NCBI GenBank assembly: GCA_951406725.2
Contig: OX597818.1
Location: forward strand, 90,458,001 to 90,522,000
DNA from: Octopus vulgaris
Taxonomy: Eukaryota
Reading direction: 5' to 3'
DNA: 64,000 bases
The notes under the pieces were generated by a model that saw nothing but the letters and a program-made list of their open reading frames with translations, had not been told where the DNA came from and ran no database searches. The translations under genes were made by a program, and so were the position numbers. Positions 203 to 57,690 of this stretch are shown one piece after another (the stretch's first letter is position 1; every line of letters starts with the position of its first letter).

Positions 203-502
203 ATTATAAATTTCTTAAACAATCTCTTTCCTAAGTCAGCGCCTTCCAAGACATCCCCGGATTTTGTCACACCCTAGATATTGCCGCCTCAGGCGGTCGC
301 CTAGGGGTAGACCCGGACTTGTGTGTGTGCGTGTGTGTGTGCGCGCGTGCGCTGGTAATATATGTGTGTGCCTGAATGTGAGCACCCACGTATACGCACA
401 AATATACCTACACAAATGCACACACACACACACAAGTAAATACATATGTACATAAGTACATATATGTATGAATGTGTGCGTGTGTGCGTGTGTATATATA
501 TA

Positions 503-742
<240 letters not shown>

Positions 743-6184: not shown

Positions 6185-6222
<38 letters not shown>

Positions 6223-6306
6223 GGTATGTAGAAAAATACAACATGGACAAGAACGTATAGCTCTTAGAAGACGACACAATAAACACGGACAGGACATTCG
6301 AAACCC

Positions 6307-6369
6307 TCAGTCTTCAGTCAAGAACCGGATCATCGTAGTAATTTCGGCTGATTAATCTTGAGATTACTA
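6307..6369 (-). ncRNA. Hammerhead-like motif with non-nested strand order (family A, copy 1)
   Basis: Minus strand: UAGUAA-UC-UCAAGA uuaa UCAGcc-GAAA-UUACUA cgaugauccggu UCUUGA-CUGAAGA-CUGA. Stem III 7 bp, stem I 6 bp, stem II 4 bp with a CC bulge. Confidence 0.7.
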
Positions 6370-7163
6370 GATCACGGCCAGCCCTCCAAGAAAAACCAAG
6401 CAACAAGCATTAGAAAAACTAAGCTGGAAGCGTAGATTTCCTGGAAGAAGGATCGAATGCATACGAACACCAGGACAGCAAAAGGGACAGATATAAAAAA
6501 ACAAAAAACAATAATGGAATACAGAAACATGAAATACAGAAGCATTAACGGTGAAAACAACAGTGTCTTACGACTGATAACAAGCAAACAAATTTTTTCT
6601 CTGGCGCAATGGAAAAAGCCTTTATAGTGGCGGACGAAAACAGCGATGTTAACAAGACAAGGGTCAGAAGCTGAAAGGCAGATTTCGGCCAACAGTCACG
6701 TGACAGAGAAGAGGGAAAAGAAAAGAAAGAGAAGCAAAGGAAGAGAGAGAGAGAGGAGAGAGAGAGAGGAGGGACAAACGCAACAAAGAGAGAGAAGAGA
6801 GAGAAAGAAGGAATCAGAGAGGAGAAGGGATGGGTGTCGAAGAATGACCTGTGAGTGCAGAGCGAGACAAAGAAATAGGAGGGTAGTGGAAGACTAGACC
6901 AAAGAATCAGAGGAAAGAGAAGAGAAAAAGAGGATGAGTAGAGAGAAAAGAGAGAGAGGGGGACAGATCAAGTAAAAATGAGAGAGAGAGAGAGACAAAC
7001 AGAGAGTCGTACCAATTATTAAGAATATGTGCTCACATAAATGTTAAGGGGGGTACGGGGCGCCTGGAATATATGTTAAGGTATGTAGAAAAATACAACA
7101 TGGACAAGAACGTATAACTCTTAGAAGACGACACAATAAACACGGACAGGACATTCGAAACCC

Positions 7164-7226
7164 TCAGTCTTCAGTCAAGAACCGGATCATCGTAGTAATT
7201 TCGGCTGATTAATCTTGAGATTACTA
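7164..7226 (-). ncRNA. Non-nested hammerhead-like motif (family A, copy 2)
   Basis: Same sequence as 6307-6369. Confidence 0.7.
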
Positions 7227-8022
7227 GATCACGGCCAGCCCTCCAAGAAAAACCAAGCAACAAGCATTAGAAAAACTAAGCTGGAAGCGTAGATTTCCTG
7301 GAAGAAGGATCGAATGCATACGAACACCAGGACAGCAAAAGGGACAGATATAAAAAAACAAAAAACAATAATGGAATACAGAAACATGAAATACAGAAGC
7401 ATTAACGGTGAAAACAACAGTGTCTTACGACTGATAACAAGCAAACAAATTTTTTCTCTGGCGCAATGGAAAAAGCCTTTATAGTGGCGGACGAAAACAG
7501 CGATGTTAACAAGACGAGGGTCAGAAGCTGAAAGGCAGATTTCGGCCAACAGTCACGTGACAGAGAAGAGGGAAAAGAAAAGAAAGGGAAGCAAAGGGAA
7601 GAGAGAGAGAGAGGAGAGAGAGAGAGGAGGGACAAACGCAACAAAGAGAGAGAAGAGAGAGAAAGAAGGAATCAGAGAGGAGAAGGGATGGGTGTCGAAG
7701 AATGACCTGTGAGTGCAGAGCGAGACAAAGAAATAGGAGGGTAGTGGAAGACTAGACCAAAGAATCAGAGGAAAGAGAAGAGAAAAAGAGGATGAGTAGA
7801 GAGAAAAGAGAGAGAGAGGGGGACAGATCAAGTAAAAATGAGAGAGAGAGAGAGACAAACAGAGAGTCGTACCAATTATTAAGAATATGTGCTCACATAA
7901 ATGTTAAGGGGGTACGGGGCGCCTGGAATATATGTTAAGGTATGTAGAAAAATACAACATGGACAAGAACGTATAACTCTTAGAAGACGACACAATAAAC
8001 ACGGACAGGACATTCGAAACCC

Positions 8023-8085
8023 TCAGTCTTCAGTCAAGAACCGGATCATCGTAGTAATTTCGGCTGATTAATCTTGAGATTACTA
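8023..8085 (-). ncRNA. Non-nested hammerhead-like motif (family A, copy 3)
   Basis: Same sequence as 6307-6369. Confidence 0.7.
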
Positions 8086-8197
8086 GATCACGGCCAGCCC
8101 TCCAAGAAAAACCAAGCAACAAGCATTAGAAAAACTAAGCTGGAAGCGTAGATTTCCTGGAAGAAGGATCGAATGCATACGAACACCATACACCAAA

Positions 8198-8231
<34 letters not shown>

Positions 8232-8241
<10 letters not shown>

Positions 8242-10279: not shown

Positions 10280-10600
10280 AATTTTTCTATCGTCTTGACT
10301 TACCTGTCCTGACCGTTTGTTCTTACTGTCTTGTTCTCACTGTCCTGTTCTTGTTACCACTTTCACCCTCCGCATAAAATCCCAAATTTTATTTAATTTG
10401 CTTTGCGGGAAGAACTGTTACAACGATCTCGCGTATTGTCCTTACCTTTGAAAAGTTGAGTAGATGAAACAGGGACAACTGATGAAGAGGAATATTCTTT
10501 ATGTTGCATGTCTAGTTTCTCTGTTTGTTTTTTTCGTTGTTCGAAAAAAAGTTCCTTTTCTATGTTTTTTTTTATTCCTGTACCCATATATGCATGTGTA
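10280..10600 (+). mobile_element. HHR family B element
   Basis: Similar by eye to the reverse complement of 41556-41925 and to 35700-35955 (CCCTCC..AAATTTTATT upstream, GAGTAGATG linker, CCTGTACCCATATATGCA tail running into TA repeats). Confidence 0.75.
10428..10490 (+). ncRNA. Non-nested hammerhead-like motif (family B)
   Basis: CUCGCG-UA-UUGUCCUU a CCUUU-GAAA-AGUUGAG uagaugaaac AGGGACAA-CUGAUGA-AGAGG. Stem I 8 bp, stem II 5 bp, stem III partly decayed. Confidence 0.7.
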
Positions 10601-11163: not shown

Positions 11164-11284
11164 CACGTATATAAATTATCTGTATAAAAACTTCGTTGGA
11201 AATAGATGTGTCGCGTTCAATTAAATAACAAATAGTAAATAATGTATAATATATAATATATATACGCACCCACATGCACACACA

Positions 11285-11600
11285 TGCATAAATGGGAGCA
11301 GGACATCACAGACTGTGCAAATAACATGAAATACGTAAACGACGAGGGAAAAAAATGGAAAAGCGGACAATTAAGCATAGAAAAAGCACCTTTCATTAGT
11401 TGTCGGTTTTTTATCTACTCCTGATTTGAATGTTCGAAATGAGGAGCAGATAGACAGCCGACAACTGATGAAGGGTCCTTTCTTTGTGTTTACTTGTCCT
11501 GTTTTTCATTTTTTACTCGTTGCTTACGTATTTAAATCGTTTGTTTACGTATTTCATGTTATTTGCACCGTTGGTGATGTCCTGTATCCATATATGCATG
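11285..11600. mobile_element. Inverted pair of family B 3' halves
   Basis: 11300-11420 is a diverged reverse complement of 11445-11585. The right arm keeps GAAA..GAG.AGAT...GACAA CTGATGA AGGG but lacks the NUH strand. Confidence 0.7.
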
Positions 11601-28479: not shown

Positions 28480-30690
28480 CAGCAAATGGTTTTTAGGTCA
28501 TTTATATGTAGTTATGGACAGACTACACCTCCTCAAGGTCTTGTGTAAGATGTTCTCGGGTCCATCAAAGAAGATGCACTTGGAAAATCTGGGGTCAGAC
28601 ATGCACGCTACATGTTCACTCCAACGCAACTGGAATTTGCTCAGGAAAGCATACACGCTTTGTACGTTAGTCCTCTCTCGAGCACGACTATATGGGGAAT
28701 CATCTTGCTATCTGATGTTAAAACGACTACCGTCATAACCATATATGGTGTCTCATAGGTGAATGTATCATGAAACATTGCGCAAAGCATCAAACTGAAA
28801 AGTGTGAGTACTAGAACAAAACCATGTCTCACCCCGTTAGGAACAACGGAAGGCGCGGAGAATTCTCGATCATTTATGACACGAGCTTGCATGCCATCCT
28901 AAAATTTATGCATCATGTTAATGAATTTGCCTGGGCAACCAAATTTCTTCATTAATTCTCCTAAAGGCCGATTCTGCTTAAAAAGCCCTGATCAGGTCGA
29001 TGAATAAGGTGTAGAGGTCTCGTTTTTGATCCTGACGTTTTTCATGAGGCTGCCTTGTAGCAAAGATGATGTCCGTGGCTCCCACAGGTTTTTCTAAAAC
29101 CACACTGACCTTCATGAAGAAGCCCAGACTTAAGACGTTGTTTGAGCCGATTGAGCATGATCCCTGCCAGGATTTTGCTGTGATGGTCAGCAGTGATATG
29201 TTCCCATGGTTCTTTCACTCTACAATGATTCCTTTTATTTTATAAAGGTGTACAATTCTGGTAGAATTAGACCCTGTTCCCACATTTCCGTTCGCCATGT
29301 CTATAGACCTAAGTAGGAATTTCCTCAGAGGCAGGGTTGAGCATTTCATTGCCAATTGAATTTCACCAAGTGTAATGAAACACTCAATCAATAGTTAGTG
29401 GGCAGCTGATGTAGACGATTTATTGCCTCTGCGTTTATATGAGCGGGACAGTTTAAGAGAGAATCAGTGTTCTGCTCATCACTTTCGTATCAACGATTTC
29501 TTTATCAATAAAATAAGGCCATTCGCGCTGAGCAAGGGGGCTGTTCTTGCTTTTTGAGGTCTATATATAGAATGAATTGTTGTATAAATGCCTTTAATGT
29601 ATTTTATCTCAGCTTCATGATATATTTCCCTAGCTCGTTGCTGAAATCGCTCATTTTCCAAACTGAGAAGTTTTTCTGTAGTAGGTGACAACTCCTTTAT
29701 GCTGATTCATTTCCTTGTGTATTGTTTTCAAGAAACTTTTGCTGTAATTGCTCCTTCCTGCTTAACAATTCTGATATTTCATCGTCATTCTCATCAAACT
29801 ATTCTTTGTGTTTGTGTTCTATTTTCCTTTAGACTTCGAGGGATGATGCATAAACAGTAGTGTGGAATTTCATCCATTTTCCCTCAATGTTATTCACTGT
29901 CTCTAATGAGTGTGTCTATTTATAATCCAGCATAGCACACGTATTCTTGGATCTGAGTTTGTTGAGGTTCAGAGAAGTTTCTATTACTTTTTCATGAGGT
30001 CGTCTTCTCATCTTCAATTTGAGTTTACACTAAGCTTTCATTAGCCGTTGGTCAGTCTATTAATCAGCGCCATATATACACTTGGCAAACACATGGTGTA
30101 CCGACCTTTCTGACAACTAATGATGAAGTCAGTCAAGTGTCAGTGTTTAGACCGGAGGTGCATCCAAGATGTGTGGTTCCCAAGAAGCAGTTTAAGCGTG
30201 GCGTTTTTCAGGAGCAACGGATTCACAGTGCAGAACTGGAGCAAAAATCCATTACTGGAATTGCGAGGGCCAAATTTATTTGTTCTAATTCTGGCATTGA
30301 TGCCTTCCAGTAATATGAGGTTTTCTTTTTGTGGAATGAGAGAAATTAGAGATGAAAACTTTTTGCAGAGTTTCATTTTCAATGCTTGGTCATTAGACGT
30401 CGTCGGGGAAAAGCAGCTCACAAGATTGAGAAAATTATTTCCTTTCGTTGCCAGTCTCAGGATCATACGCCGATAATTTATGGCTTTTGGAAGGACGGTG
30501 ACATTTTGCTAGGCTGTTTTTCACTGAAAAAGCTACACCAGCTTCGTGCTCCTTCTCCTTCTCCTTCTTTGACTGGAGTTTTCCGGACTCTGGAAGTCTT
30601 GTTTCGGTGAGAGTAGCTATGTTAATGTTGTCCCTCGATAATTCTTTACCAACAAGGACTGAGTTTCTTGCAAGCCTTCCTAGTTCGTTG
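28480..30690 (-). mobile_element. RTE/BovB-like LINE, decayed APE and RT
   Basis: ORF fragments LVGKELSR.NI.IA.L.ETRL, SWMHLRSKH (TWMHPRSKH-like), and NGVR.G.VL..TLFS. Confidence 0.88.
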
Positions 30691-30699
30691 TTATATATA

Positions 30700-30870
30700 G
30701 GTGCAGGCGTGGCTGTGTGGCTATGTGGTAAGAAGCTTGCTTCCCGACCACATGGTTCCGTGTTCAGTCCCACTGCCTGGCACCTTGGGCAGGTTTCTTC
30801 TACTATAGCCTCGGGCCAACCAAAACCTTGTAAGTGAATTTAGTTGACGGAAACTGAAAGAAACCCGCAT
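30700..30870 (+). mobile_element. SINE S1, 5' part
   Basis: GGTGCAGGCGTGGCTGTGTG...CACCTTGGGCAGG. Confidence 0.85.
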
Positions 30871-33548: not shown

Positions 33549-33609
33549 TTCAGCTGATGAGCTTAAAGTCTGATTTTTCATACAGAAAGCGAAATCAATT
33601 GATCCTGAA
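33549..33609 (+). ncRNA. Canonical type I hammerhead ribozyme
   Basis: UUCAG CUGAUGA GCUU..UCUG..CAGA AAGC GAAA UCAAUUGA UC CUGAA. Perfect core, 5-bp stem I, palindromic stem III, AUC site (cut after 33604), followed by AATAAA. Confidence 0.85.
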
Positions 33610-33833
33610 ATAAAGCACTTCCTTACTTTTGTATTCCACGCAAGGTAGCCTGTTTCTGTTATATTTATTGCCTTGGCCGTGTGTATTTTAATAATGAGTA
33701 ATAGATCTGGGAGCGATAGCGATAGCTCTGATTATAGCAAGTGGTATCTAAATACCCTGTTGAATTTGAATTTAGTTTCTATTTTACCTGTAAAGGTTAA
33801 ACTTGCTAGTCACTTTATTATTATTATTATTAC

Positions 33834-35506: not shown

Positions 35507-35787
35507 CCCATCTTTCTGTAGTTGCTCATACGTAACTATTGTCCATCTTTCTTTTCCTGCACAGACGTTCAAAGGACTGGACGTGTTTTTTTCTATCTTT
35601 TCTCTTTCCAAAGAAAGTATTTCTCCCAGCGTTCTCAATTTTCCTCTCGTTCTGGTCTAATGACCCTCCATGTTTGTTTTCGTTCTGTTTCCTTTTATGC
35701 GTCCACTGTCCTGTTTTTGTTCCCAACTTTGACCCTCCATAAATCCTAAATTTTATTTTAGAATCTATGGGAGCAGCTGTGTTTGAA

Positions 35788-35850
35788 GACATATTGTCTT
35801 TGAATGCTCGAAATACGGAGTAGATGCACAGCCGACAACTGATGAAAGAT
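35788..35850 (+). ncRNA. Non-nested hammerhead-like motif (family B), decayed
   Basis: A-UA-UUGUC ... GAAA U.. GAGUAGAUG.. GACAA-CUGAUGA. Stem I perfect, stems II and III eroded. Confidence 0.5.
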
Positions 35851-41559: not shown

Positions 41560-41925
41560 AATAAAATAGAACATATGCATATATATAAACATATATGTAC
41601 GTACCTACCTCTACATGTACATATACACGCATATATGTGTACAGGACACCAAAAAGACGTCGAACACATAGAGAGACGAAAAACATAGACACAAACCAAG
41701 GAACAGGACAAGCAAAAAAGAAAAAAGAGATACAGGACAATAAGCACAACGAAAAATCCCCTTCTTCAGTCGCTAAGGTTTCATCTACTCTACGTTTCGA
41801 AGGATAAAAGCGAGACGTATACTTCGAAGAAACTTCCTTCCTGCGAAAAGCAAATCAATTAAAATTCTGAGATCTTTTCGCAGAGGGGTAAAAAATGGTA
41901 AAAAAAGCAAGACGGTAACGACAAT
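41556..41925 (-). mobile_element. HHR family B element
   Basis: Similar to 10280-10600, embedded in (TA)n, and flanked by a direct repeat of about 90 bp. Confidence 0.75.
41756..41819 (-). ncRNA. Non-nested hammerhead-like motif (family B), best preserved
   Basis: Minus strand: UACG-UC-UCGCU uuu AUCCUUC-GAAA-CGUA gaguagaugaaaccuu AGCGA-CUGAAGA-AGGGGAU. GUC site, stems I and III perfect, stem II 6 bp. Confidence 0.78.
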
Positions 41926-42078: not shown

Positions 42079-43295
42079 TCCATTTCATGCCCTTAATCAG
42101 GTCTGTAATTTTCTCCAAAAACTTCTTAGAGCATAGTTCCCTTCAATGTATAGGTATGTTTTTCTTAGAATAATCGATGTAATAGGCGTCCATATTGGAT
42201 TCTTCCGAGGGGTAGAGTCCGGCGATTTTCCAAAATAAGCTGTATTAGCCCTTAGGGAAGAATAGCGGTGTACGGGAGGTAACTTATTGATAAAAATGGT
42301 AAGACAACAAAAGAAAGATATAGTATTTTTCCGATGGCCGGATAACTGAAGAGATGGCGGCGTGGATTTCCACCTCGGCATCCGAAACTCGGAGTTTTAT
42401 CATGGCTACCGAATAATTGTCACATATTACATTTACAGATATATATATATTATATGTATGTATATGAATTAGAAATGGAAACCAAAACAATACATAATTA
42501 AATAATTTAATCATTAAAAGATAACTTCAATTCAATTTTATTACTTTATATAAACAAATGATACATGTCATAAATTACAGTTGTTTCGACTCCATTAATA
42601 TAAACAAATTTTTCAAGAATAATAAAATATCGTTTAAATATAATGAGATTTCATCAGAGCGAGGGACCAACAAAACTCCTTGTAGCACTAAAGATGACTG
42701 ACGGCAAGGATTATGGCAGCATTCACCAACTTAAATAAGGAGACCGTCCAGAAGAATTGCAGCAGATTCCGAAATCGTCTGAAGGCCGTGGTTGAAGCCA
42801 ATGTCGATTTTATTGAATAAATTTATTCTTTAATATTTCAAGATATTTTCATGTAATTTTGGTAAATATATATGTTAAAATGAGATGCGCAACGTAAACT
42901 ACACACTAGGTGGGGATCGAAACACAACTATTTTGAAGGAACCTTAATTCCACGCTATGCGCAGATTTTCAAATAGTATTTCAGATAAAATATATGAAAA
43001 TTAGGGTTATGTGACAGCCCCGTGCCCCTCGCATACACTTCCACAATTAAATACCCTAATTTTCTATATTAGTCATATCTCTAACACATATATACTAAAT
43101 TGCTTATGGATATGATGCATTTAATCATATTTCACTGTAGAAACCATGTTTAAAACATCTGATGAGTAAAGATAGCAAAAACATTGAGATATAAGACAAT
43201 TGGTAGGTAGGTACCTCTCCAACATGGCAAAATTACAACTTTTCAGTGTCTGTTAAATGATTTTCTTTTTAGAAAATGTATACATTTGTTGAATG

Positions 43296-44017: not shown

Positions 44018-45307
44018 CGAGGGGTGTTCAATAAGTAATGCCCCTGACCCACTTCCCATAGCAGTAGAACAACGAAACTTGGCACAGTTATTAGTCTTTT
44101 TCTACATAGGAACCACCCAGAGTTACGCATTTCTCCCATTGTTTGATGCAGCTCTGGAGACCGTTTTTGTAGAAGACCTTAGCTTGGTCCTCCAACCTGA
44201 ACGTGACTTCAGAAATAAAGGCTGCATCATCTGGGAAACGCTTTCCTTTCAAAAACAACTTCCTGACTGGGAAGAGGTGAAAATCAGAGGGTGCAAGGTC
44301 AGGAAAGTAGGGGGATGGGGCACGAGTTCATAGCCATACGCCTGTGCTTCTGATCTGGCGACAAGCGAGTTGTGGACCGGGGCGTTGTCCTGCAGGAGGA
44401 GGATGCCTTTGCTGATCTTGCCCCGCCTCTTGATTTTGATAACTTCTCTTAATTTCCTCAAAAGTGAAGCATAATAAGCTCCTGTAATTGTGGTACCCTT
44501 TGCCAGGAAATCTGTCATCACTACTCCGTCCTGGTCCCAGAAGACTGTGAGCATGACCTTGCCAGCGGAGGGCTGCACCCTTGCCTTCTTTGGAGGGGGT
44601 GAGTCACGGTGCTTCCACTGCATTGACTGGGCTTTGGTCTCTGGATCATCGTGATGGACCCAGGTTTCATACTGTGTAATCAGTCTTTTGAAAAAGTTTG
44701 ACTCATCTTCTTGGCACATCTCCAAATTCACCTTCGAGCACTCGACGCGTTCTTGCTTCTGGAAAGGTGTGAGCAACCTGGGAATCCATCTGGCAGACAC
44801 CTTTTGCATATGCAAATGGTCATGAATGATAGTTTCCACAGACCCGGTACTAATCTTGACCTCATGGGCTATTTGGCGAATAATTATGCGTCGATCCTCC
44901 AAAATGGCAGCCTCAACTTGACGGACAGATGCCTCATCAATGGCAGAAGAGGCGACCAGATCTGGGAGCTGTTTCCACAGAGTTCCGACCATGTTTGAAT
45001 TCACGATGCCAGCGTTTTACAAGGTCATATGATGGGGCATCATCACCATAAGTTACTTTCATTTCATCAAAAGTCTCCCGTGGTGTGCGTCCTTTCAAAT
45101 ACAAAAACTGGATCACTGCTCGACACTCAACAGGCTCCATTTCACACTTGACTCGGTTCAAACACCTGTAAATCAGAAGCCACAATTAATTCAGAGCTGT
45201 AATTTGCCACTTACTCTATAGAGATATAAATGATTGCACATGCAAAATTTCAGCTAGATCAAACAACTGCAAGTGGGTCAGAGGCATTACTTATTGAACG
45301 TCCCTCG
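44018..45307 (-). mobile_element. Full-length mariner element (about 1290 bp)
   Basis: TIR CGAGGG..GTTCAATAAGTAATGCC.CTGACCCACTT at both ends, with a TA target duplication. Confidence 0.95.
44091..45140 (-). pseudogene. Mariner transposase pseudogene
   Basis: MEPVECRAVIQFL HTH, WIPRLL (WVPHEL-like), (D>Y)ETWVHH, QDNAPVH, frameshifted PPYSPDL-like motif. Frameshifts near 44950 and 44315; first catalytic Asp lost. Confidence 0.93.
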
Positions 45308-52989: not shown

Positions 52990-53445
52990 GAAAAAGGACA
53001 GCAAAAATCAAGGTGGAACGAGTATCTTAGGCCATTTACAGTATTCAATTAGAGTAAGGTAATTTAGAAGTAATTAAAGTCTTATAACAGTATCTGGGAT
53101 ATCCTAAGTGATGGGTCCACATCTCCATATATTGCGTATTCCGTCATCAGAGACAAGGTGCCTATGTAGGCAAATTCCAGACAGAGAATTCACAGTGTAT
53201 AAAAGAATAAGATAATATCTACTGTTTTATTCTTTTATACATTGTGAATTCTATCGGGAACTTGCTCTACATACGCACCTTGTCTCTGATGACGGAATAC
53301 CCAGTGTATGGAGGTGCGGACCCATCACCTAGAATATACCAGAAACAACTGCAAGACATTAATTACTTCTCATTCACCTTACTCTAATTAAATACTCCAA
53401 ATGACCTGAAATACTCGTTCTACCGTGGTTTTGTTGTCCATTTAA
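52990..53445. repeat. Diverged inverted repeat (arms about 220 bp), each arm with a decayed type I HHR
   Basis: Centre near 53218. Right arm GUCU CUGAUGA..GAAA CAACUG CA AGAC (53282-53357); left arm mirror at 53079-53154 has GAUA instead of GAAA. Confidence 0.8.
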
Positions 53446-54285: not shown

Positions 54286-54320
<35 letters not shown>

Positions 54321-54404
54321 GGTATGTAGAAAAATACAACATGGACAAGAACGTATAACTCTTAGAAGACGATACAATAAACACGGACAGGACATTCGAA
54401 ACCC

Positions 54405-54467
54405 TCAGTCTTCAGTCAAGAACCGGATCATCGTAGTAATTTCGGCTGATTAATCTTGAGATTACTA
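54405..54467 (-). ncRNA. Non-nested hammerhead-like motif (family A, copy 4)
   Basis: Same sequence as 6307-6369. Confidence 0.7.
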
Positions 54468-55269
54468 GATCACGGCCAGCCCTCCAAGAAAAACTAAGCA
54501 ACGAGCATTAGAAAAACTAAGCTGGAAGCGTAGATTTCCTGGAAGAAGGATCGAATGCATACGAACACCAGGACAGCAAAAGGGACAGATATAAAAAAAA
54601 AAAAAAAACAATAATGGAATACAGAAACATGAAATACAGAAGCATTAACGGTGAAAACAACAAGTGTCTTACGACTGATAACAAGCAAACAAATTTTTTC
54701 TCTGGCGCATTGGAAGGAGCCTTTATAGCTGCGGACGAAAAACAACGATGTTAACGTGACGATGGTCAGAAGCTGAAAGGCAGATTTCAGCCAGCAGTCA
54801 CGTGACAGAGAAGAGAGAAAAGAAAAGAAAGAGAAGCAAAGGAAGAGAGAGAGAGAGAGGAGGGACAAACGCAACAAAGAGAGAGAAGAGAGAGAAAGAA
54901 GGAATCAGAGAGGAGAAGGGATGGGTGTCGAAGATTGACCTGTGAGTGCAGAGCGAGACAAAGAAATAGGAGGGTAGTGGAAGATTAGACCAAAGAATCA
55001 GAGGAAAGAGAAGAGAAAAAGAGGATGAGTAGAGAGAAAAGAGAGGAGAGAGAAGAGAGAGAGAAGGGGACAGATCAAGTAAAAATGAGAGAGAGAGAGA
55101 GACAAACAGAGAGTCGTACCAATTATTAAGAATATGTGCTCACATTAATGTTAAGAGGGTACGGGGCGCCTGGAATATATGTTAAGGTATGTAGAAAAAT
55201 ACAACATGGACAAGAACGTATAACTCTTAGAAGACGATACAATAAACACGGACAGGACATTCGAAACCC

Positions 55270-55332
55270 TCAGTCTTCAGTCAAGAACCGGATCATCGTA
55301 GTAATTTCGGCTGATTAATCTTGAGATTACTA
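55270..55332 (-). ncRNA. Non-nested hammerhead-like motif (family A, copy 5)
   Basis: Same sequence as 6307-6369. Confidence 0.7.
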
Positions 55333-55656
55333 GATCACGGCCAGCCCTCCAAGAAAAACTAAGCAACGAGCATTAGAAAAACTAAGCTGGAAGCGTAGAT
55401 TTCCTGGAAGAAGGATCGAATGCATACGAACACCAGGATAGCAAAAGGGACAGATATAAAAAAAAAAAAAAAACAATAATGGAATACAGAAACATAAACT
55501 TGTTAACAGATGAGATCCAGAGATTCTCAGTATAGAAAGCAGTTAGTGGCACTCAAATGATTCAAACAAGAGAAAGCAAATATATATTTCTTTCACTATC
55601 CAACCCCAGTGATCATCAATATATGTATATGAGTATATAATAATAATAATAATAAC

Positions 55657-55779: not shown

Positions 55780-57690
55780 TGTATTGTTCAACCTAAGGAT
55801 AACAAACGGAAACTACGTAATTTAAACTTGATACACAAGATGTAGGAAAAACAACACGGACTATTTAACATCAGAAATGAACGGACCAGTACCCTACGAA
55901 AATGATGACCATGAAAATTAAGGGCCGGACGTTATTCCTCATGTCCCGCAAATAAAATCAAAACAGTATATAAATGGACACGTGAGGAATATATTTCAAA
56001 TCTACACGCTCATTTTACAGCAGTGCTCTACCCAAAGAACAAAAATTCAACAACAGCAAAAAGAAGAAGGGTTTAAGTATGGCCTGGATCGATTACCGAA
56101 AGGCTTTTGATAGTATTCCCCAAACATGGATCCTAGAAAAACTAGCCATGAAGAAACAAGGTGGCATCAATAATCATAAAATATATAAAACATTTCATGA
56201 ATAAATGGCAGACAGTGCTACAGCTCCAGACAAAAGAGGGATTCATAAAAGCCAAAGCCATCCCCATTAAAAGAGGTATATTCCAGGGAGACACGCGCTC
56301 TCTCCTCCTTTTCTGCTTGGCACTGACATCTTTATCTGACATGCTAAACAGAACTGGATGTGGATACAACTGTTACGGCAAAACAATCAGCCATCTCTTG
56401 CATGTGGATGATATAAAACTGTACGCTACAAATGATAAACAGCTGAAAACATTATTACAGACAGTACATAGATTTATCAGAGAAATATACATGAAATTTG
56501 GCTTATTGGCTTAGAAAAATGTGCCAAAGCAATCTTGAAAAACGGAAACTAGATAAAGCATATAAAATAAGAGAATTAGACCAAAGCTAGACATACAAAT
56601 ACTTAGGAGCACAAGATCAAACCTTCCCGCCAGAAATCAACAGATCACGTAATAAAAAGAAATGCAAGTAACTAGATACGATACAACACACACAAATGAA
56701 ACAGGTTAAAAAAGGAATGCTAACGACGAGTCAGATTAATATTGAAAATAGAGTTCAATATGGAAAACAAGATAATAAGTATCAAAACTCTAGCCGTCCC
56801 AGTTACAAGTTGCAGCTACTATATTCTTAACTGGACTCTAAATGAGGTAATCAAAATAGACAGGAAAACAAGAAAAATAATGACATGATTTAGAATGCAC
56901 CACTCAAAATCTGACATAGAACAGTTATATATACAATGTATCGAAGGTGGCAGAAGCCTTATACAGCTAGAAAACTATTACAAAATAACCACCATAGGAC
57001 TACAGAAATCCTACTTCAGAAGTAAGGAAAACTGATACAAATAAGATGAAAAAAACACAAAACAAACACACTGTTTTCAGTCTTTAAGGAAGCTGACAAA
57101 TACAAAAAAGAAATCATAGTACCTAACAACTAGGGAAAAAAAAGAAACAAAATATGATGTAAAACAATTAAAATTAAAATTAAAACTGGAACAGCAACAG
57201 ATCATGACAAAACGATGGTAAGAAAAGCCCCTACATGGCAAATATTCGGTTAAGTTAAACAGAAATGAAATAGACAAGGCAAAATCCCAACAATGGCTGG
57301 GAAGCTCAGGACTCAAAGCAGAGACTAAAGGTTTTTGAAATGCAGCACAAGATCAAGTCTTTAGGCTTTGTGCCTTCAGTAGAAAGGATTCTACCTGAAA
57401 TCACCAAATCACGTAATGAAAAGAAATACAAGTAACTCCAGTATATGTGGTGATTGAGAAGAAACAATAAATCACATTGTCTCTGACTGCCCAGTCCTGC
57501 TAAAAAGGAATATATTCACAGGCACGGCAGAGTTGGGACCTATATACACTGGAAATTATGCCAAACACAAGTGAATAACAACAGAGAAAAGATGGTTTAG
57601 GCACTCGACAGCAAAGGTCAAAGAACATGAAAAACCAACCATACTCTGGGATATGCCAGTACACACAGATAGAGAAACATAAACAATCTT
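55780..57690 (+). mobile_element. R4/Dong-clade LINE, decayed RT, CCHC region and RLE start
   Basis: MAWIDYRKAFDSIP, IKRGIFQGD.., ISHLL.VDDIKLYA, S..WL.S.GL..ET.G, AAQDQ, ETINHIVS.CPVLA, ILWDMP. Confidence 0.88.

Follow-up and report, generated by a model that had tools for sequence, protein, structure and literature searches.

A putative hammerhead ribozyme with a probable open core in a non-coding tandem repeat of Octopus vulgaris

The minus strand of positions 6307-6369 in a 64,000-nucleotide stretch of Octopus vulgaris DNA (contig OX597818.1; the whole stretch is called the window here) carries the blocks of a hammerhead ribozyme in an unusual order, and an earlier note had completed its stem II with a bulged helix beside the core. 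The locus raises the question whether this RNA can form a hammerhead and, if so, which strand closes stem II.

Core letters, block order and conserved stems

Re-reading the minus strand of 6369-6307 returned exactly the letters and the spacing given in the earlier note. All letters of the hammerhead core are present (C3-U4-G5-A6-N7-G8-A9, G12-A13-A14, A15.1-U16.1 and H17), and the predicted cut after AUC had been correctly placed between 6362 and 6361:

6362..6369, minus strand: 5' strand of stem III, which includes U16.1 (6363) and C17 (6362); the cut is predicted at 6362/6361
6356..6361, minus strand: stem I strand UCAAGA, followed by the linker UUAA (6352-6355)
6346..6351, minus strand: stem II 11.x strand UCAGCC, followed by G12-A13-A14 (6343-6345) and the stem III 3' strand (6336-6342)
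6318..6323, minus strand: stem I strand UCUUGA, followed by the core C3-A9, CUGAAGA (6311-6317)
7164..7226 and 8023..8085, minus strand: identical copies 2 and 3 of the putative ribozyme
54405..54467 and 55270..55332, minus strand: identical copies 4 and 5

A scanner for six block orders reports the order cut site - GAAA - CUGAnGA (S-G-C), with lengths of 6 for stem I, 6+1 for stem III and 4 with a 2-nt bulge for stem II; its five matches in the window are 6369-6307, 7226-7164, 8085-8023, 54467-54405 and 55332-55270. The full set of core letters is thus in the reversed order of type SGC, which Eckert et al. 2023 describe only from metatranscriptomes and have shown to cleave (PMC10085705, cited here and below from its available part). 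Types I, II and III have the cyclic order C-G-S and do not fit, and the linker of 4 nt between stems I and II agrees with the short linker of type SGC (HRIMA-1, SGC variants; PMC10085705). The descriptors of Eckert et al. demand CUGAUGA(U)G (PMC10085705); the repeat studied here (family A) and the sequence-unrelated family B would therefore be missed by them. Rfam at its gathering threshold gives no match anywhere in the window.

The five copies had been noted as identical in arrays that differ elsewhere, and this was confirmed: 5/5 are identical over the motif, and the two arrays are about 94% alike. Family A and family B do share the reversed-order core, as had been claimed. The argument that such an order exceeds chance also stood up: in 264,000 bases (the window and 20 stretches of 10 kb, four of these adjoining the window) there are 8 sites, versus 1, 0, 0, 0 and 0 in five dinucleotide shuffles, with the restriction that 5 of the 8 are copies of one repeat and hence not independent.

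Across the genome, the family A pattern has 6,830 matches (1 for the reversed control), the 34-nt version of the window has 866 exact matches (control 0) and the pattern of the family B group (families B, C and D) has 6,592 (control 1). A fixed-gap pattern over the whole motif was replaced by a shorter pattern. Fifteen pattern matches in viral contigs lack the stems and were discarded. Within the window, B/C/D copies with the same layout and a 5x5 loop lie at 41758-41819 (minus strand) and at 10420-10490, 11425-11480 and 35770-35850 (plus strand); 11284-11427 is the inverted truncated partner of the copy at 11425.

Stems I and III, which flank the core, are 100% paired in an alignment of 9 family A copies, with 3 double changes. 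Across sister subfamilies, stem III changes from GUAA/UUAC to GCAA/UUGC and stem I from UCAAGA/UCUUGA to UCAGAA/UUCUGA and UCAGGA/UCCUGA. Pairing over the whole structure amounts to 96.4% in the same alignment, with double changes at 6 pairs, a value reached by 3 of 500 shuffles, although the 9 copies were chosen by hand and the tool itself cautions that related sequences can exceed shuffles. The family B group and the Naiad type (see below) supply unrelated sequences for identical stems. Among the sister subfamilies of family A the core is fixed apart from position 7, where A, U, G and C are all found, and a cleavable UH (AUC, AUA, GUC or GUA) and all catalytic positions are kept across the unrelated families. 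The triplet AUC is rare among natural hammerheads, yet fast after folding (PMC1636495, available part).

The strand that completes stem II

Three registers of stem II can be drawn: CUGA/UCAG with a CC bulge, as in the earlier note, GG(C/U)U downstream of the core after a 5-nt insert, and GGCUG upstream of the cut site. They involve two further features:

6378..6383, minus strand: strand P (GGCUGG), which lies upstream of the cut site and is proposed to supply 10.1-10.6 of stem II
6294..6310, minus strand: variable 5-nt stretch after A9 (strand of the bulged register, 6307-6310) and 3' strand of an outer helix P0 (6294-6301)

The bulged register is probably not the right one: in 74 copies, a sample enriched for mutated ones, the letters after CUGAnGA fall into 10 classes while UCAGCC is constant, and 21 of the 74 are in classes with only 1-3 of the 4 pairs. 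It is still 94% paired in the 9-copy alignment and was dropped in favour of the upstream strand, which is stronger and covaries across families. The downstream GG(C/U)U is kept in all A subfamilies; this register was dropped as well, being weak (-1.9 kcal/mol here) and made of letters that also form P0. At positions 0-2 after A9, family A has no partner for C11.1, so that the intact block C of type SGC is absent, and the two remaining downstream registers (bulged and 5-nt insert) are both weaker than the upstream strand.

Upstream GGCUG pairs right up to GAAA with a G-C pair, and the duplex has -8.3 kcal/mol. Duplex energies range from -2.9 to -9.5 kcal/mol for the upstream and from -4.2 to +2.6 kcal/mol for the downstream strand, and the mean pairing score in 83 distinct scaffolds is 13.3 for the upstream, 8.3 for the downstream and 6.8 for the bulged register. 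Via the upstream strand, G10.1-C11.1 is G-C in 13/13 representatives of families A, B, C, D and the Naiad type, the next four positions have 2-4 pair types each, and 65/65 cells are paired over the five positions, with both the representatives and the best-pairing offset picked by hand. The counterparts of the upstream helix are GAAGGA/UCCUUC (B), GAGCA/UGCUC (C), GAACG/UGUUC (D) and GACACC/GGUGUC (Naiad type), and family A and the unrelated Naiad type agree in where the strand begins, 20 nt ahead of U16.1. Within single families, shuffle tests of the upstream strand give modest p values, from 0.003 to 0.18 (0.065 in the window copy), and the pairing is invariant inside family A, which therefore provides no covariation of its own. 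The stretch is also present in four runs under other organism labels, in two of them unbroken with 3-4 differences, and these add no new stem II variant.

Judged from these pairings, the upstream GGCUG is more likely to be the true strand of stem II, and we consider it probable that the core is open, with A9 not joined to G10.1. This also changes the view of the competing helices, which the earlier note had proposed as an on/off switch: both helices exist, but GGCUG is more likely stem II itself and GAUC/GAUC is likely structural. If the upstream strand is stem II, deletion of the upstream segment should abolish cleavage, opposite to the release that had been predicted.

A wiring that is open between A9 and G10.1 lies outside the six published block orders and is not type SGC as defined: there, stem II follows directly after CUGAUGA or after one U, and the authors assumed the block to be unsplittable (PMC10085705). 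Type CSG resembles family A in its reversed cyclic order and its fourth helix, but A9 stays joined to G10.1 and the opening is between stem III and stem I (PMC10085705). The plus-strand hammerhead of CChMVd tolerates an extra A between A9 and G10.1 (PMC3705267, available part); this is one nucleotide in a circularly permuted ribozyme, whereas in family A the backbone would be fully opened and closed by two helices. A search of mostly open-access literature found neither a hammerhead open at A9/G10.1 nor a permuted hammerhead in Naiads; it found the term 'type-SGC' in one paper only. In its available part, a paper of November 2026 still names only extra helices and alternative permutations (PMC13725137).

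Outer helices, geometry and rival assemblies

The opened core would have to be held together from outside, and four features are candidates for this:

6453..6460, minus strand: P0 5' strand, pairs with 6294-6301 and is predicted to tie both ends of the opened core
6383..6451, minus strand: predicted hairpin H, between P0 and G10.1, with compensatory changes among A subfamilies
6370..6377, minus strand: helix IIIb 5' strand (CCGUGAUC), counterpart of the helix through which stems I and II interact in SGC/CSG ribozymes
6325..6335, minus strand: stem III bend (4-nt bulge CGAU) and IIIb 3' strand

The nested minimum-energy fold of 6270-6480 includes P0, hairpin H and the upstream pairing. Hairpin H has double changes in the 9-copy alignment; helix IIIb is 86% paired there with one double change, and its sequence differs in B/C/D and in the Naiad type. 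A pairing of CGAUGAUCC with GGGUUUCG was ruled out, as better covarying partners exist for both (IIIb and P0, respectively). The helix of GAUC/GAUC and CCG/CGG (IIIb) is likely structural and matches the fourth helix that Eckert et al. found to be necessary: SGC and CSG ribozymes with an equivalent helix cleave and depend on it (PMC10085705). As in type SGC, this helix connects the strand 3' of stem II 10.x with the one 5' of stem I. Unlike in type SGC, the 10.x strand of family A is most likely upstream, and both strands of the fourth helix continue into stem III.

In the structure that we propose, the minus-strand RNA would fold into a knotted open-core hammerhead with the upstream GGCUG as stem II, the gap between A9 and G10.1 being closed by P0 and hairpin H. 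A bend in stem III, formed by a kink-turn in most subfamilies and by a 4-nt bulge in the window subfamily, may fold IIIb back and bring the distal ends of stems I, II and IIIb together within one copy. The cut after AUC (6362/6361) would then free a unit-length RNA. That a single copy of the 857-bp repeat suffices for this knotted fold on its minus strand is, from the sequence, an evenly balanced call.

In a kink-turn, two stems are separated by a 3-nt bulge and then tandem G.A and A.G pairs. Compared with this consensus, a kink-turn-like pattern (3-nt bulge, tandem G.A) is found in most A subfamilies and in the Naiad type; in the window subfamily one G is replaced and one G.A pair is lost, and the 4-nt bulge fits instead. 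Where A has the kink-turn pattern, a symmetric, purine-rich 5x5 loop takes its place in families B, C and D. A crude estimate with rigid helices, for which stems II and III were stacked (PMC4209133), leaves a gap of 10 A in A2, 12 A in the Naiad type and 17.5 A in the window copy at a kink of 50 degrees, and of 19-24 A even at 30 degrees in two published Naiads that were read by eye. By this estimate, folding within one copy is plausible where stem III is kinked and doubtful in the other families; a domain-swapped dimer would suit all of them.

The same helices and the same open core could also be assembled from two copies: the base of the stem III/IIIb hairpin (strand P, stem I strand and CUGAnGA) would dock in the loop of the next copy, and cutting would occur only in tandem transcripts or at high concentration. 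This has some chance of being right, if a minor one. The elements do sit in tandem arrays, length and bend of stem III and IIIb differ among families, and both the 5x5 loop of B, C and D and the wide gaps in the two published Naiads are easier to accommodate with a partner. Hammerheads of Penelope elements and retrozymes are known to work as dimers (PMC4209133; PMC7229834, the latter from its available part), and Eckert et al. had already flagged the distance problem for some SGC ribozymes (PMC10085705). The kink-turn pattern at identical spacing in family A and the octopus Naiads, on the other hand, suits a fold within one copy; some Naiads are listed without pLTR, and the gap estimate is crude.

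A plain type SGC ribozyme, in which stem II is built from the strand after CUGAnGA (GG(C/U)U after the 5-nt insert, or the CC-bulged CUGA) and GGCUG serves as an off-switch, is quite unlikely. Both downstream registers can be drawn in the window copy, the bulged one with its 94% pairing in the 9 A copies; GG(C/U)U is retained in all A subfamilies, and HRIMA-1 carries a 1-nt insert at the corresponding place (PMC10085705). Yet the downstream duplexes are the weak ones in the energy comparison given above, GG(C/U)U would be conserved because it is a strand of P0, and five published Naiad passages, read by eye, have no downstream partner at all (PMC8557442, available supplement). An off-switch that rebuilds G10.1-C11.1 beside G12, as found in 13/13 representatives, would moreover leave the core complete.

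It is highly unlikely that the fold is real and does not cut unaided, as would be the case for a structure for reverse transcriptase recognition or packaging, or for one that cuts with the help of a host protein, for example one that binds kink-turns. Insertions of the repeat end about 90 nt downstream of the core and not at the cut site, and minimal Penelope hammerheads cut poorly in vitro (PMC4209133), as this reading would have it; but unrelated families retain all catalytic positions and UH, and position 7 alone drifts in the core, as would be expected under selection on catalysis. A chance likeness preserved merely by the youth of the repeat has a negligible probability: the five window copies and the 866 genomic copies do represent one recent family, but the sequence-unrelated A, B/C/D and Naiad families share the layout with compensatory changes, and this cross-family covariation contradicts it.

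The repeat, Naiad elements and possible carriers

The motif is part of a repeat (family A1 in the window) with a tandem unit of 857 bp, which is non-coding and has no protein frame. Its copies in the window are the following:

6220..8198, minus strand: array 1, a 5'-truncated piece of 264 nt and two full units of 857-859 nt; 3 putative ribozymes; 3' end at 6220
54318..55498, minus strand: array 2, a 5'-truncated piece of 316 nt and one full unit of about 865 nt; 2 putative ribozymes
6188..6219, no strand: (TA)n target adjoining array 1 on its 3' side; beyond the array, the microsatellite continues at 8201-8241
502..641, plus strand: 5'-truncated copy of the sister subfamily A2, with the cut-site block lost to a microsatellite

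In the 2.8-Gb genome, which is rich in microsatellites, the arrays have one common 3' end, variable 5' truncation and up to about 5 units; (TA)n is present in 8/8 distinct 3' flanks, and inverted truncated copies adjoin some copies of families A and B/C/D. Insertions stop about 90 nt downstream of the core and not at the predicted cut site. Fixed 3' end, 5' truncation, partial tandems, inverted truncated copies and a microsatellite target are all traits of non-autonomous Penelope-like elements. In 26 units from 12 arrays, chosen as best matches and therefore a young subset, substitutions amount to 18/12,411 sites within arrays (0.15%) and to 1,369/168,724 between arrays (0.81%), and variants that are private to an array and common to all its units were found in 1 of 8 multi-unit arrays. 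The homogeneity within arrays would agree with a single template. This build fits copying from circular or tandem RNA: cut monomers may be ligated into circles and reverse-transcribed round more than once, and a Penelope-type reverse transcriptase would likely copy the RNA into (TA)n sites.

A short AUAUAU-like stretch lies at the unit junction (7070-7080), exactly where insertions end on (TA)n, and suggests that reverse transcription is primed at internal microhomology, not at an RNA end. Contigs from four runs presumed to be RNA, which hide ends, strand and level, include some that span the predicted cut site and, in each run, one that seems to continue over the unit junction; they contain no joints and no pile-up of ends. 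One contig end near 6241, beside a short repeat match, is likely a library artefact, and we take its letters to resemble a cDNA template-switch adapter. A promoter and an intron within the unit were considered and rejected, as sister subfamilies lack the TATA-like word and the contigs of the four runs contain no splice joint.

Family A shares with non-LTR retrozymes the dispersed arrays of non-coding tandem units with one hammerhead each and the proposed reliance on Penelope-like elements (PMC7229834; 10.64898/2026.07.22.740005; both from available parts). The retrozymes differ in having type I hammerheads and RNAs of mostly 170-400 nt, and their circles have been demonstrated (same sources); family A does not have a type I hammerhead but the proposed reversed open-core fold, has units of 857 nt, and its folding is not unusually stable (the circular monomer folds about as well as shuffled sequence, z -0.09).

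With Naiad elements, family A has (TA)n targets, partial tandems and inverted truncated copies in common (PMC8557442, cited here and below from its available text and supplement). Craig et al. 2021 describe Naiads as having no canonical hammerhead, only core and half-core marks (PMC8557442). Read by eye, the published Naiad consensuses contain the open-core fold in at least nine passages (three Acropora Naiads, two octopus Naiads and four others; supplement of PMC8557442); in five of these nine, nothing 3' of A9/CUGAnGA is able to pair beside GAAA, and one published passage permits the CC-bulged downstream register. At least six Naiad passages, mainly nematode rows, look by eye like clean type CSG, one of them with a fourth helix of 10 bp; type CSG was hitherto reported from two metagenomic sequences only (PMC10085705). 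These readings come from 86 of the 153 occurrences of four core words in the available supplement, most of which are table rows or coding sequence. Several arthropod Naiad passages there have CUGACGA after a run of C, and further wirings may exist.

In the octopus genome, the motif of the octopus Naiad consensus has 383 matches (control 0), and of 30 loci with Naiad-type reverse transcriptase remnants, 11 have the fold 1.0-1.4 kb downstream in the same orientation (13 flagged by the program, minus 3 that were false by eye, plus 1 missed). Family A and the octopus Naiad tails have the same ribozyme layout and kink-turn pattern at identical spacing. Different from Naiads, family A encodes nothing: the N-terminal GIY-YIG and reverse transcriptase frame of the Naiad clade is absent, no reverse transcriptase is joined to any A or B/C/D copy examined, and blastn gave no match of the family A unit to the Naiad tail or to the tail of a Neptune-like element. 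Descent of family A from Naiad tails is therefore suggested by the layout, and would apply to the design and not to the present mover.

Naiad reverse transcriptase copies are decayed, with a longest open frame of 292 aa among the 150 matches listed (150 of 834 candidates scored). Since family A is young, another Penelope-like element may now move it. A young Neptune-like Penelope element (L057:1-2880, plus strand, and L062) has a 781-aa frame with reverse transcriptase and C-terminal GIY-YIG, and frames of 781 aa are open in at least 16 of the 148 GIY-YIG matches listed (150 of 6,136 candidates scored). This element ends in (TA)n, and we regard it as the likelier present carrier of the young subfamily, although an unseen intact Naiad or another element may serve instead. 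Inspection of the Neptune-like element for the open-core fold found none. Its 3' region has tandem CCAAT-like repeats, and the element carries a hammerhead variant that by eye resembles type I, with position 3 being U. One SGC-like match in a GIY-YIG locus (L071) is antisense inside the coding region and was taken as chance.

The widest reading would make the open core the ribozyme of Naiads from corals to octopuses, and of over 13,000 non-coding descendants in the octopus genome, working as a domain-swapped dimer that cuts tandem transcripts only; the descendants would have outlasted the parental Naiad through a change to the reverse transcriptase of a Neptune-type element. Taken as a whole, we think this rather unlikely.

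Non-circular hammerhead permutations have until now been known from environmental sequence and one weak bacterial candidate (PMC10085705). If the RNA studied here cuts, the assumption that CUGAnGA and stem II are inseparable falls, a rearranged class is abundant in animal genomes (the octopus genome by itself has 6,830, 6,592 and 383 pattern matches), and it is a search artefact that Naiads were reported to lack hammerheads. That absence had prompted the idea that hammerheads are dispensable passengers of Penelope-like elements (PMC8557442); the role of the hammerhead in Penelope retrotransposition would become testable in a second clade. A 190-nt construct has sharply opposite predictions for the open core and for type SGC, and the new opening point in a widely used ribozyme could be of use for engineering.

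Many hammerhead-bearing repeat families are present in this genome. A type I hammerhead at 42341-42401 (plus strand; also at L091:3878, plus strand) belongs to a separate repeat family and has a bulged C in stem II; it is missed at the Rfam gathering threshold. Further type I hammerhead-like motifs lie in the window at 33550-33620 (plus strand) and 53130-53300 and in five other loci (L059, L081, L082, L088 and L098), the pair at 53150 and 53286 being an inverted duplication. Three remnants in the window are unrelated to the ribozyme: a non-LTR reverse transcriptase (56152-56514, plus strand), a mariner-type transposase (44249-45016, minus strand) and an endonuclease-like frame (30435-30839, minus strand). 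A GIY-YIG exon at L068:1360-1650 (plus strand) is unlike Penelope endonucleases and presumably belongs to a host gene of SLX1 type.
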